From: Lama glama
Taxonomy: Eukaryota
Direction of reading: 5' to 3'
Assembly (NCBI GenBank): GCA_028534125.1
Contig: CM052816.1
Coordinates: 38,628,001-38,692,000, forward strand
Length of the DNA: 64,000 nucleotides
The translations under genes were made by a program, and so were the position numbers. The notes beneath the pieces were generated by a model. It was not told where the DNA came from. It saw only the letters and a list, made by a program, of their open reading frames with translations, and searched no databases. Shown piece after piece: positions 54,025 to 60,200 of this stretch (its first letter is position 1; each line of letters opens with the position of its first letter).

Positions 54025-54640
54025 TCACCATATCGACCAGCAATTCTACTCCTACATATTTACTCAAGTAAAATAAAAAAAACTTGATTTACACAAAAAC
54101 CTCATACATACATTATTATAGCAGCTTTATACATAGTTACCTAAAACTAGAAATAATCTAAACATCTCTCATCTGAAGAATGAAGAAGCAAACTATGGTA
54201 CTGGTACTACACATGCTGGAACATTACTCAGCAATTAGCAATAAAATGCTGGCACATTACTCAGCAATTAGCAATAAAAGAAAAACCTATAATAAGTGCA
54301 ACAGCATGTATGCATTTTAAATGTATTTCATTCAGTGAAAGAACTCAGATTTAGAAGACTACATACTATACGATTCCATTTGTATGACATCCTTGTAAAT
54401 GCAAAACTATAGAGACAGGAAATAAATCAGTGGTTGCCAGGGATTGGTGTGGGAGAAAATTTCAGCTACAAAGGAGTACAGTGGAATTTGCGGAATGTGA
54501 ATGTGAGAACTGTTTCCATATCTTGATTGTGGTGACATTTATAAAATTTATGCATTTCTTAAAATCCAGGGGACTGTACACTAAAATGGGTAAATTTTAC
54601 TTTATGTAAATTGTGCCTTAGAAATTTTTGAAAAGGAAAA
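54025..54640 (+). mobile_element. Old L1 (L1ME/L1MB) 3' end with an internal 33-bp tandem duplication (54213-54278)
   Basis: ccatatcgaccagcaattctactcct...atcagtggttgccaggg...ctgtacactaaaatgggtaaattttactttatgtaaatt. Confidence 0.85.
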
Positions 54641-55903
54641 AAGAGAAATGGTTTAGAAGAAAGGAAGGGACAAATATTGAACAGATAAAATACTGAAGAT
54701 GTTGTCTTTGAAACATACAGATCACAACATACAGATCACAGGAGTTCCTGAAATAAAACACCAAGGCAAGAGAACAAAACAAATACTAAAACTTAATATT
54801 TAAGAAAACTTCCTTGAATTACAGATTCAAAGCTACATGTTAAAGCACGCATGTACCTGACAATTTAGACTCAGAACTACTATCGTTAAAGTACACTCCA
54901 GTAAAATTACTGGACTTCAAAAGAAATAATATTTGGGCACTTTAAAAAAAATTTTAATTTTACAAGAAAAATTAAATTAAATTATCAACAGACTTTGACA
55001 GCAGTACTTTATTCAAGAAAAAAATGGAACAATATATTTGAGAATCTTAATGAAAGATTGTGTGTCAAGGGTTTCACATCCAGAAAACTGACTTTCAAAT
55101 ATAAAGAGCATAAGATAAACTATTATCAACATTCAAGAATTCAGGAATGTTCTCATGAGCACTTCCTTAGGAATTTACTAGGGAAAAAAATTCTGACAAC
55201 CAAAATAACTAGAGAAATACCACCATAGGCAATTAATGGTGAGCATTATGTTTACAATTACATTTAAAACTAAAAGTAGATGAATATATTCAAAAGGAAA
55301 AAAATACAGTTTGTAACTGCTATATACTCAGACCTTACAGATATAGTTCAACCTCCCCAAAAAATGGGCAAGGAAAGAGGATAGCATATTCAAAAATCAC
55401 AGATAACTGTGTTCCATAACCATATTGATAGTAGTCATATTAGCATTGTTATTCTGAGGCCGTTGTATGTATAATTCAGCATAAAGAAAATAAGATATTA
55501 TAGCATAATTCTAGTTCTAACATTCCCTATGTCCTTGAGGAGAGGCTAAACAAAAACCCTGTAGTACTTAAATTGATTTGAAAATATCAATACAAACTCA
55601 TGAAGTATGTTATCTTTGGATATGTATATATTTAAAGACATATAGTTCTGTGTACTTCTCACCTCTGCCTACATAATTAAATTTATTTAAATGCCTAGAA
55701 AAATGACCAGCCCAAGATAAATAATCATCCCTAACACCCAGATTTTAATCTTGAAATTTAACTTTCCACTAAAGAATCCAGTTTGATCTCCTGGGGAAAA
55801 GTTTGATTGTAGGACTGAGACAGGAAGTATGTAAGATAAGCCCAGAAAATCTTGTCAAACTAGATAGTAAGGTAGAAAGTAAGCGAGCAAAAACTAATAG
55901 AGT

Positions 55904-57146
55904 CTGACTATAAACCTCCTAGAAGAAAACACAGGCAAAACACTCTCTGACACAAATCTTAGCAATGTTCCCCTAGGACAGTCTACTCAGGAAATAGAAA
56001 TAAAAGCAAAAATAAACAAATGGGACCTAATTAAACTCATAAGCTTTTAAACAGCAAAGGAAACCATAAGCAAAACAAAACCATCTATGGAATGGGAGAA
56101 AATATTTGCAAATGATGCTACTGACAAAGGTTTAATTTCCAGAATATATAAACAACTCATACAACTTAGTAACAAAAAAATAAACAACCCAATCCAAAAA
56201 TGGGCAGAAGACCTAAATAAGCAATTCTCCAATGAAGACATACAAATGGTCAATGGGCACGTGAAAAAATGCTCAGTATCACTAATTATCAGAGAAATGC
56301 AAATCAAAACTACAATGAAGTATCACCTCACACCAGTCAGAATGGCCACCATTCAGAAGTCCATACACAATAAATGCTGGAGAGGGTGTGGAGACAAAGG
56401 AACTCTCCTACACTGCTGGTGGGAATGTAGTTTGGTGCAGCCATTATGGAAAACAGTATGGAGATTCCTCAAAAAACTAAAAATAGACTTACACCCAGCA
56501 ATCCCACTCCTGGGTCTGTATCTATAGGGAACTCTAATTCGAAAAGATATATGCATCCCAATGTTCATAGTAGCACTATATACAATAGCTAAGACATGGA
56601 AGCAACTTAAATGTCCATCTACAGATGATGAGATAAAGAAGGTGTGGTATATTTATATAATGGAATACCACTCAGCCATAAAAAAGAATAAAATAATCCC
56701 ATTTGCAGCAACATGGATGGGCCTGGATATCATCACTCTAAGCAAAGTAAGCCAGAAAGAGAAAGAAAAATACCATATGATATCACGCATATGTGGAATT
56801 AAAAAAAAAAAAGAGAAAAAAGAATACCAATGAACTCATCTAAAAAACAGAAACAGACTCACATAGTAAACAATCTTATAGTTACTGGAGGAAAGAGGGT
56901 GGGAAGGGATAAATTTAAGAGTTTGAGATTTGGAAATGTTAATCACTATATGTAAAAATAGATTAAAAAACAAATTTATTCTGTATAGCACTGGTAACTA
57001 CATTCAATATTTTGTAATAACCTTTAATGAAAAAATTATGAAAATGAATTTATGTATATATATATAGCATGACTGGGACATTATTCTGTACATCAGAAAT
57101 TAACACACTGTAACTGACTATGCTTCAGTAAAAAAATTAAGAAATG
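55904..57146 (+). mobile_element. Younger 5'-truncated LINE-1 (ORF2 C-terminus, 3' UTR and A-tail)
   Basis: [22 protein letters not shown]...[18 protein letters not shown] (ORF2p cysteine-rich domain), frameshifted; TSD aaaaactaatagagt (55889-55903) / aaaagctaatagagt (57147-57161). Confidence 0.95.
56087..56833 (+). pseudogene. Disrupted L1 ORF2p C-terminal coding remnant (ORFs 56087..56527 and 56561..56833)
   Basis: The two ORF-track peptides are consecutive parts of the L1 ORF2p C-terminus, separated by a stop codon after a local frameshift. Confidence 0.9.
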
Positions 57147-57279
57147 AAAAGCTAATAGAGTTTGTCAAAACACTCGTGAGCCAAATAGAAGAGGCTCTCA
57201 CTAGCTAAAAATGAGACAAACAAGCTTCAATAAGGTAATAATGCCAACAGACTGAAACAGATTAAAACACATTTAAATC

Positions 57280-57610
57280 AGCACAGACAGTTCCACACAG
57301 GTCAACGCAAAGAGGAACACACCAAGGCACACAGTAATCAAATTGACAAAAATTAAGGATAAGGAGAAAACATTAAAATTAGCAAGAGAAAACCAACAAA
57401 TAACATACAAGGGAATTCCCATAAGGTTACTTAGCTGAGTATACAGCAGAACTCTATAGGCCAGAAGGGACGGTATAGCCCAAGTGGCAGAGTGCATGCT
57501 TAGCATGCACAAGGTCTGGGGTTCAATCCCCAGTACCTCTACCCAGCAAGGCTCTTTCAGATTTGATGGAGAAATCGAAAGCTTAGTTTACAACAAATGT
57601 TAAAGGAACT
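57280..57610 (+). pseudogene. L1 ORF1p fragment, interrupted by a SINE head
   Basis: Translates NAKRNTPRHTVIKLTKIKDKEKTLKLARENQQITYKGIPIRL, then resumes after the SINE head as YPARL..FRFDGEIES. Confidence 0.85.
57467..57540 (+). mobile_element. tRNA-Ala-derived SINE head (camelid vic-1-like), no tail
   Basis: gggacggtatagcccaagtggcagagtgcatgcttagcatgcacaaggtctggggttcaatccccagtacctc, with an A-box, an AGC anticodon-like loop and the B-box GGTTCAATCCC. Confidence 0.85.
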
Positions 57611-57696
57611 AATGAATTGGGTTTTTTCTCTTCCCACTTCTTAGTGGGATTAGACTATCATGAAGTCATTTATAATGGAAAACTTTTATTATCTGA

Positions 57697-57767
57697 TTTT
57701 TTAATTTTTGTTTTGAGGGGGGAGGTACTTAGGTTCATTCATTCATTTATTTTTAGAGGAGGTACTG
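57697..57767 (-). mobile_element. vic-1-like SINE 3' tail
   Basis: Reverse complement cagtacctcctctaaaaataaatgaatgaatgaacctaagtacctcccccctcaaaacaaaaattaaaaaa. Confidence 0.75.
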
Positions 57768-58018
57768 TTTGTTCTAGTTCTGTGAAGAGTATCTTTGGTA
57801 TTTTGACAGGGGTTGCACTGGATCTGTAAATTGCTTTGGGTAGTACAGCCATTTTGATAATGTTGATTCTTCCAATCCAAGACCACAAGATATCTTTCCA
57901 TTTCTTTGTATCATCTTCAATTTCCCTTATCAATGTTTTACAGTTTTTGTAGTGTAGTTAACACCCTTGGTTAAGCTTATTTCTAGGTATTTTGTTGTTT
58001 TTGATGCAATGGAAATGT
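57768..58018 (-). pseudogene. L1 ORF2p fragment (post-RT region)
   Basis: IREIEDDTKKWKDILWSWIGRINIIKMAVLPKAIYR...ILFTELEQ and KYLEISLTKGV. Confidence 0.9.
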
Positions 58019-58080
58019 TTATGCCAGTTATAAAATTCTGGTTTTTGAAGTGAAAAAAAAAAAAAGAATGAAGGCCCACA

Positions 58081-58245
58081 AATGGCAAAATATCCTTCTT
58101 TCTTATGGGTGAGTTGTATTCCATTACATATATATGCTGCATCTTCTTCATCCATTCATCTATTGATGTGCACTTAGGATGTTTCCATATCTTGGTATTT
58201 ATAAATAATGCTGCTGTTAATAGTGGTGTGTATGTATTTTTTTAA
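58081..58245 (-). pseudogene. L1 ORF2p extreme C-terminal fragment
   Basis: MKKMQHIYVMEYNSPIRKKDILPF resembles L1 IKKMWYIYTMEYYSAIKKNEILPF. Confidence 0.8.
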
Positions 58246-59369
58246 TTAATTCTTATTTTGTGGTTGGCTTTATTCCTTTGATAACTATGTAAGTTTAAAA
58301 AGCTAAAGGTCTAAATGCTCTTAGAAACAATAAACAGTACATATATGTAAATTTTAAAAAATATGTGCAGTATATTCTGTATATGTATTTATATGCAGTA
58401 TATTGTATATGTGCAGTCAAACTGTAACAATTCTACCTAATAAAACTGAAAAATGAAAAAAAAACATTTAAATCTATGAGTCTATAATGATAGAGGAAAA
58501 AAGCCAATGGGTCTCCAGAAGATGACTGGGAAATCAATTCAATATCCTGGAAGCTGGTAAATTAAGAAAAATAATTACTATTTTTTATCTATACTGTCTT
58601 CCTTATATGAATTGTACCACTGGGTACTGACATAACAGATAAGAAACAGCATCTCTTCACAAAATTTTTCACCTGATAAATAAACATAAAATACTAAATT
58701 CAGAAAATCACCATTTCACAAGGTATTAGGATGAATGGCTGCTAGTATTGTAACAGAAGAGATACAGAAAGGGAGAAAGTGTGAGTAAGAGAGAGAGAGA
58801 AGTTGAAGGGGGTTGGAACTGAGAGAAAATCAGACATTATTTGTTCCTGATGAAAAACCAACAACTGGTTTGCAAAGAGATCTAATCCATCAAGCATTTG
58901 GAACTAGCTGCCAATTTGCAGTAAGTCAGAGGTCAGAGGAATATGCTGAAAAGCAACAGCAATAAGCATGAAATTACCAACCCAGACTGGGAAATTCTAC
59001 AGGTTAAATGATCTAATTCTTCAAAAAATGAATTCCAAATTAAAAATAGATACAGAGAGAAACTCTATACTAAAAGACATAAAAGGTAGGCCAATATGCA
59101 AACAAGGTGCAAGACAGTTCAGGGATGCACACTTGGGTGATAAATTGATAAAGAAAATCAAAGGAGTGACTAGTATAAAAATCAAGGTAGTGGTTACTAT
59201 GGGGCCAATTAGGATTGGAACAGGGCACACGAATGAACTGTATAGGCAAAATTCTGTTTCCTAACTCAGGTAGTGGCTAGAAAAGTATTCATATTACATT
59301 AATTCATTAAGGTACATACATGGTTTTATATATGTGTGTTTTATTTTACACAAAAGGCATAATTCATAT

Positions 59370-60200
59370 AGAAACCTGAAAAATAGATTCAGAAGTTTTT
59401 CTAGAGAGAGCAAATATAGAAGAATAGCAATGATAAGTTTGGAAAAGAATAACAGAGGACCACTTTCTCCACCGGTTATAAATATAAACCATTGGTAAAT
59501 AAAATAGTCTGGTACCAGGAGAGAAATAAAGACATCAGTGGAACTAAATAGATAATTCACATCTTCATACTCATATACATATGCACACACGTGTCTAATA
59601 TGAGAAAAGAACTGATTATATGGTTATATGGTAACCAAACGGAAATTTCAAATTGATTTAAGGTAGAAAACTGAAAATGAAAGCAATAAGGAGTTAAATA
59701 AAATACCAGTTGGGGGGTTAGGCAAAGGGAATACTTCCTAAGATAGTCGTAAGATCCAGAAAACAAAAAAGAAAATATTAATATTTTGAATAAATGGGGG
59801 AAAAAATCTTCTCAAAGACAAAATATTTTATAACTAATTTTTAATGGCAGACTAAGATAATATATTTGAAGCTCACAAAACTGGCAAAGGATTATTACCC
59901 CTTACATACAAAGAAGGCTTATATATCAAAAGAAAAAGCAATAATTTAATAGGAAAAAACAGTCAAAGGTCATGAATACATATTGGGAAAAAAATATGTA
60001 TATATGTATTATCTACTCTATATAGAATGACACTCGACCTTACTAGTTGTCTTATAAACGCGAATTAAATACCATTCACAATTTTCAACCAATTCAATTG
60101 ACTAAAAACTTTTAATTAATAATAAATAATGTTTGAGAATATTCAGGTATAAAAGTACTGTCATAGAACGTTTTCTCCTCTTGGAAATCTTTTAAATGGA
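59370..60200 (+). mobile_element. Highly diverged old L1 ORF2 fragments
   Basis: agaatagcaatgataagtttggaaaagaataacagaggac...aataaagacatcagtggaac...ctggcaaaggattattaccc. Confidence 0.55.

Follow-up and report, generated by a model that had tools for sequence, protein, structure and literature searches.

The window, which is the whole 64,000-nt stretch of Lama glama DNA that was analysed, contains a block of L1 and SINE pieces near its right end, enclosed by a single target-site duplication (TSD). The block comprises a left sense part, an inverted middle part and an AT-rich sense end, with the following features:

57264 to 57279, plus strand: left TSD, with TT directly before it (TT/AAAA L1 endonuclease motif)
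57280 to 57471, plus strand: piece A, the RRM/C-terminal part of L1 ORF1 (Pfam PF02994, E 9e-11; ORF1p in the PDB; 120 homologues)
57469 to 57541, plus strand: piece B, a complete tRNA-like SINE head (Rfam tRNA model positions 1-71 of 71)
57537 to 57584, plus strand: piece C1, ORF1 again and in register (LYPAR-FRFDGEI-S), with a 1-nt frameshift, from the homologue alignment
57585 to 57611, plus strand: piece C2, the final ORF1 codons (LQQMLKEL), before which ~15 codons are deleted, from the homologue alignment
57612 to 57696, no strand assigned: piece D, beside the SINE A-tail
57697 to 57767, minus strand: piece E, an inverted SINE 3´ half with an A-rich tail, which has a 9-nt word in common with B
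57766 to 58017, minus strand: piece F, the middle of L1 ORF2 (aa 786-843; PDB, E 7e-20), with DNA similarity that reaches ~58017
58018 to 58078, no strand assigned: piece G, with TATAAA at 58029 and A13 at 58053-58065
58079 to 58250, minus strand: piece H, the L1 ORF2 C-terminus (aa 1193-1245; PDB, E 2e-10; 72.6% to the upstream L1)
58251 to 58458, plus strand: pieces I/J, an AT-rich 3´ end (25% GC) with a tandem stutter, AATAAA at 58439 and a short, interrupted A-tail
58459 to 58474, plus strand: right TSD, with a single C-to-A difference within an A-run

The borders of the block are formed by a 16-bp direct repeat, AAAACACATTTAAATC at the left and AAAAAACATTTAAATC at the right, which is identical at 15 of 16 positions, as an earlier sequence-only reading of this DNA had described. 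On both strands of the whole 64 kb, only these two 16-mers fall within three mismatches of the TSD word. A comparable repeat was observed in none of the 12,751 null windows compared with the real right junction and in none of the 4,440 null pairs anchored at other A-runs; the TSD is real and not due to chance. The left TSD edge reads GATT and then AAAAC, which is the TT/AAAA motif given for the L1 endonuclease site (10.1101/2025.02.02.635956), and the length of 16 bp lies within the ~12-18 bp expected of an insertion made by L1 ORF2p through target-primed reverse transcription (TPRT). At the right end, the claimed AATAAA is present, and only AAAAATGAAA stands between it and the A-rich right TSD. 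The tail (at most 10 nt, interrupted) is therefore weak; a short A-rich stretch precedes the TSD as proposed, but the A-tail is less substantial than had been claimed. Together with the L1 endonuclease site and the poly(A) signal, the 16-bp TSD supports a single integration of the outer ends by L1.

The left sense part primarily derives from ORF1. The ORF1 similarity starts exactly at the TSD edge, and piece A is decayed, with two stops and small frameshifts; the Pfam and PDB matches confirm that it is a plus-strand ORF1 piece. Compared with the best 120 homologues, of 564/594 candidate proteins, A, C1 and C2 follow one another in order along a single ORF1 C-terminus. Piece B occupies the place of 17 ORF1 codons (51 nt) and overlaps A by ~2-4 nt and C1 by 5 nt, as inferred from codons and not from a DNA consensus. 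It has no tail. The claimed SINE head is supported by the match to the whole tRNA model, though the score of 23.6 bits lies under the gathering score of 29. The second ORF1 piece, also predicted from the sequence, resumes at 57537 and contains the expected internal jump at 57584/57585, where ~15 codons (45 nt) are gone. Because the three ORF1 pieces are colinear, the templates number ~5-7, and the 8-10 pieces counted previously stand as segments but not as templates. The SINE family of the block is presumably Vic-1. Vic-1 is listed as a camel SINE in the available part of PMC3531059. A SNORD64 match in the block (E 0.8) was dismissed as chance. Elsewhere, an ORF1p fragment (P0001) was observed in which the segment at the RRM end and the CTD start is tandemly duplicated.

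The middle part is inverted and is composed of SINE and ORF2 pieces. The 9-nt word CAGTACCTC begins E (57759-57767) and also ends B (57531-57539); this word, with a weak match of E to another SINE-like tail (23/26, E 0.002), supports the inverted SINE tail of the sequence-only reading. An inverted 9-mer was shared, at any place, by random stretches of such sizes in 679 of 20,000 draws, and here it lies at both junctions. Two random breakpoints in a SINE of 130-150 nt land at most 10 nt apart 13-16% of the time. Piece F overlaps E by 2 nt, contains a small internal deletion and is not continued beyond the SINE tail. Pieces F and H lie ~350 codons apart on ORF2, and for both the PDB and DNA matches bear out the minus-strand ORF2 middle and ORF2 end that had been recognised previously.

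Pieces D, G and I/J have no match beyond chance in the 64-kb window or the fetched loci. Piece D either flanked the SINE on its 3´ side or is a primer fragment that was captured. Piece G may be a second poly(A) end, with TATAAA 18 nt before A13, and a fold-back better accounts for some of this piece: its 11-nt arm (58064-58074) is a fold-back copy of 58094-58104 with one mismatch. These G|H arms are the sole local inverted repeat of the block. Such an arm lies near 2.4% of random points, from which a fold-back arm over eight junctions is expected ~18% of the time by chance. A stop-free frame of 102 codons on the minus strand (57936-58241) passes through all of the pieces from H to F, so that two ORF2 parts that lie far apart remain in one reading frame. 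This frame was rejected as evidence for a family. Two of three candidate proteins matched it at 86-92% coverage, and in both, which are ordinary ORF2p C-termini, the extension past the ORF2p end is a gapped, spurious alignment. Because the matching proteins are ordinary ORF2p ends only, the frame is probably due to chance. In the I/J end, the stutter noted earlier consists of a 24-nt unit at 83%, and the TRF rows agree. The L1-like piece and L1 3´ end that had been placed at 58251-58458 are unconfirmed, because I/J has no significant match to the L1 ends of the window or to the fetched loci. The last 60 nt of the block presumably resemble old L1M ends.

The block lies in a host element that we take to be L1MC-type, as in the sequence-only reading, and that may rejoin if the block is taken out. 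The segments 54700-55900, 57162-57263 and 58475-59400 presumably belong to one old L1M/HAL1-like host, apparently split by both this block and a neighbouring L1. That neighbour (55889-57161), whose right end lies ~100 bp before the block, presumably interrupts the same host and is a separate 5´-truncated L1 with the ORF2 end and 3´ UTR, ~76-78% identical to outside mammalian L1 contigs; its own TSD of 15 bp is identical at 14 of 15 positions (55889-55903 / 57147-57161). Further upstream, an old repeat contains a direct duplication of ~35 nt (54200-54277). A motif scan for relatives of the host gave three matches in bacterial records, with the similarity confined to the motif, and a single AT-rich match (E 0.004) in five genomes with mammalian-type contigs was taken as chance.

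Both the block and its pieces appear aged. Piece H differs at 14 of 80 columns that are invariant in five outside L1 copies, the neighbouring L1 differs at 12 of 80, and piece A differs at 9 of 41 well-conserved residues, partly via a local frameshift; these counts overstate decay because lineage changes are included. The 15/16 TSD has a P of 0.02-0.28, depending on the assumed decay. The block is old and dead, and that its pieces were already decayed at the time of capture is not established.

Established for this locus are the site, the TSD, and which L1 and SINE pieces it contains and in which orientation (+ - +). Within each orientation block the L1 and SINE pieces are co-oriented, and the ORF1, SINE and ORF2 pieces abut directly, without spacer, inside one TSD. 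Approximately 830 of the 1,179 nt of the block are L1 or SINE, compared with ~8% LINE1 in camelid assemblies according to the accessible text of PMC8605555, which points to a pool of retroelement RNA or cDNA. The reading that we prefer, and hold to be about evenly balanced between right and wrong, is a single L1-endonuclease insertion that grew from two cDNA ends through repeated template switching. L1 ORF2p would have integrated it in the germ line at the TT/AAAA nick, leaving a copy now long dead and without function. The poly(A)-primed cDNA would have copied only the 208-nt I/J end, and the other 970 nt would derive from reverse transcriptase (RT) switching among L1 RNA, SINE RNA and one or two further transcripts. 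If the RNA templates are assumed to be sense, two cDNA tracks of opposite polarity would diverge from C2|D. The left track would copy the ORF1 end (C2), skip 45 nt, copy C1 and cross over to SINE RNA where the tRNA fold ends, and would then run past the SINE 5´ end to land again on ORF1 (A). The right track would pass through D, the SINE tail, the ORF2 middle via the 2-nt overlap, G and the ORF2 end. The ends would be closed by short-homology joining with the TSD retained.

RT template switching is compatible with the short overlaps at several junctions and with a SINE head that was copied as far as the 5´ end of the element; the head stops at model position 1, as expected with a SINE RNA template. 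Template jumping and 5-nt priming by ORF2p have been shown in vitro (PMC10830420), and TSD-flanked multi-source insertions with poly(A) and captured extra cDNA have been shown in cells (PMC11702581), as far as the available parts of these reports describe. The near-common breakpoint of B and E seems to recall the halves of a twin-primed insertion. Among twin-primed inverted pieces, deletions of 1-10 bp were reported in 22 of 32 and duplications in 10 of 32 (PMC11702581, in the part compared). For the one integration event with many template jumps that had been proposed, the TSD, the nick site and the poly(A) signal sustain the outer ends, whereas we infer that all inner junctions come from the same event. 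Against a single event stand the at least eight junctions, the short A-tail and the + - + order, which is unlike plain twin priming, and pieces that look older (H, 14/80) than the 15/16 TSD suggests. The neighbouring L1 repeats this pattern of old pieces and a young TSD (12/80 and 14/15). A simple inversion of the middle block was rejected, because undoing it fails to give the L1 order. In a more specific version, a short duplex at C2|D would be extended outward both ways by L1 RT and the cassette captured at a separate TPRT nick, a sequence of steps that is unlikely in these particulars. One SINE RNA would then be split between the tracks, tail on one and head on the other, with at least six template switches in a single germ-line event.

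A serial history, in which later break-repair events added or rearranged the inner pieces of a simpler TSD-flanked insertion, is rather unlikely. These inner events could be endonuclease-independent L1 or SINE capture, templated insertions and deletions, such as the exchange of 51 nt of ORF1 for the SINE head. Endonuclease-independent L1 insertions are 3´-truncated, with target DNA deleted in 18 of 21 and non-L1 filler in 15 of 21 (PMC1920257, in the part compared); piece B with its 17-codon deletion resembles them, and the age of the locus allows later events. However, this class comprises 21 loci in a whole-genome scan (same source), and several independent events within 1.2 kb, as a serial history needs, are therefore unlikely. 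In such a history, B and E would have the breakpoint word in common by coincidence alone. Serial nesting in which each piece has its own TSD had been named beforehand as the pattern opposed to one event, and among 17 repeat families of at least 12 nt no inner direct repeat brackets any piece.

The block could also be the retrocopy of a mosaic that pre-existed at another locus and was transcribed to the AATAAA, which we consider unlikely. The single TSD, the single poly(A) signal and the single tail are the traces of a plain retrocopy, but the origin of the junctions is merely shifted to the other locus, and no second copy was found in the 64-kb window, by the junction motif in metagenome contigs or by junction peptides, all of which are weak tests. 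The junction-motif null is uninformative because the SINE-motif control failed: the control likewise found no mammalian contig, with 0 genome contigs, 0 viral contigs and 1 metagenome contig, which carries a GC-rich bacterial-type gene. No candidate protein contains the ORF1-SINE-ORF1 junction peptide, in a test that is weak for mammalian DNA. A blastn comparison of the block with plasmids and phages gave no match, the ORF1 locus search gave 326 candidates and 0 confirmed, and the viral ORF2 search gave 0 loci. The undescribed composite family suggested by the sequence-only reading thus receives no support from the window, the junction motif or the junction peptides, each a weak test for mammalian DNA, and a retrocopy whose source spread further as a small composite family is hardly to be expected at all. 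The block is most likely a rare dead product of RT moving between RNAs and not a new repeat family. In bacterial genome records, 16 contigs (L001-L016) with mammalian-type L1 ORF2 sequence were observed, which are most likely host or reagent contamination; one of them (L007) is itself a 5´-inverted L1, and in another (L013), an L1 piece is fused to coding sequence of bacterial type.

DNA-level capture, by which fragments or single-stranded copies from a donor region rich in L1 and SINEs would be joined at a TPRT break through microhomology-mediated repair, is very unlikely. RT would then be needed for the I/J end only, B and E could come from a single genomic SINE that broke in two and was flanked by D, and the fold-back arm and the stutter fit repair synthesis. 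Templated DNA insertions at L1 sites have been reported (PMC11702581; 10.1101/2024.08.27.596794), with the templated pieces typically at most 15 bp from the insertion site (10.1101/2024.08.27.596794), in the parts of these reports compared. In contrast to such nearby sources, the 64-kb window contains no match to D, G or I/J; moreover, the SINE head does not run beyond the 5´ terminus of the element, and L1 and SINE share one direction within each orientation block.

The block was also compared with sequence runs. From 57150-59300, 217 words were sampled, and a share of 0.63-0.69 of them is present in 20 of 23 listed runs, which belong to 7 studies and 6 organism labels; two small runs with a share of 0.04 (X21, X22) and one that is not indexed (X23) are no evidence. 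Because flank-only words make up just 43%, the runs contain words from inside the block (P < 2e-9, even sampling). Junction-spanning words make up 15%, and flank with repeat-derived words 74%; therefore, the word shares do not establish the junctions. An assembly or library chimera of real repeat reads is most improbable: no run exceeds 0.69 of the words and the 15% junction words cannot separate a chimera from a real block, but an assembler would not put a 15/16 duplication at a TT/AAAA site beside a poly(A) signal, assembly overlaps are much longer than the 2-9 nt by which these junctions overlap, and words from inside the block recur in so many runs and studies.

If the block is one event, L1 ORF2p can chain many template switches in the germ line, and cDNA tracks of opposite polarity can be joined while a clean TSD stays. 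If the two-ended extension of a duplex is true, the block would be a fossil of multi-template cDNA assembly, well past the two to four parts of the published chimeras that were compared. Such blocks may be under-counted because repeat annotation would break them into unrelated fragments. Further examples could be sought as TSDs that enclose directly adjoining fragments without tails, among them the two halves of a single SINE in opposing orientations. The block itself is one old, non-functional locus that may stem from a single event.

Several classes of known insertions resemble the block. The multi-source L1 insertions of PMC11702581, in the part compared, have in common with it a TSD, poly(A), several RNAs, extra cDNA capture and short overlaps, together with same-orientation switches and opposite-orientation joins. 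In these cases one mRNA contributes three pieces, two transcripts are joined, or a pair of inverted pieces is accompanied by two additional RT sequences, and they are fresh somatic insertions. The block, by contrast, is an old genomic copy with eight or more junctions, in which the pieces fall into three blocks by orientation and one switch leads out and back again. Bipartite and tripartite chimeric retrogenes (PMC2104539; 10.1101/2025.02.02.635956) likewise hold copies of LINE and SINE or other RNAs in one TSD, and are ascribed to template switching or RNA ligation. As described in the available portions of these sources, they have two or three parts and usually a recognisable LINE 3´ end. 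Most pieces of the block, by contrast, are cut at both ends, and its 3´ end has no LINE match in the window or the fetched loci. Different RNA copies lie inside one TSD, as in a template-switch chimera, but their orientation is + - + and not single.

Twin priming with 5´ or 3´ switching (10.1101/2024.08.27.596794, in the part compared) also produces inverted L1 pieces and an extra internal switch. There, one L1 RNA and converging tracks are involved, whereas the block calls for several templates and for two inner tracks that would diverge from one junction. Compared with a plain twin-primed 5´-inverted L1, the 5´-most part of the block is sense and its ORF2 pieces lie far apart. Non-classical endonuclease-independent L1 insertions (PMC1920257) similarly contain internal fragments cut at both ends, filler and short overlaps. 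This class is marked, in the text available, by the absence of a TSD and a divergent endonuclease motif, whereas the block has both a TSD and the motif. SVA and LAVA composites, as far as their descriptions were compared, are also L1-mobilised mosaics of repeat fragments that end in a poly(A) signal; these are multi-copy with a fixed architecture, whereas weak tests found no second copy of the block. Ordinary nesting also differs: B is tail-less and stands where 17 codons are removed, and beyond the SINE tail there is no continuation of F.

In the titles and abstract starts of a mostly open-access literature, no insertion with so many parts and no camelid composite element was found, and the terms 'composite' and 'chimeric' have 0 occurrences in the available text of PMC8605555. 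The most complex published cases comprise three or four pieces in the parts of the reports compared (including PMC2831318, PMC2912911, PMC11702581 and PMC1920257). The block is more complex than the published cases compared, yet it is explained by known chemistry. It works like a template-switch or twin-priming chimera, with the TSD and the endonuclease motif of an L1-made insertion.
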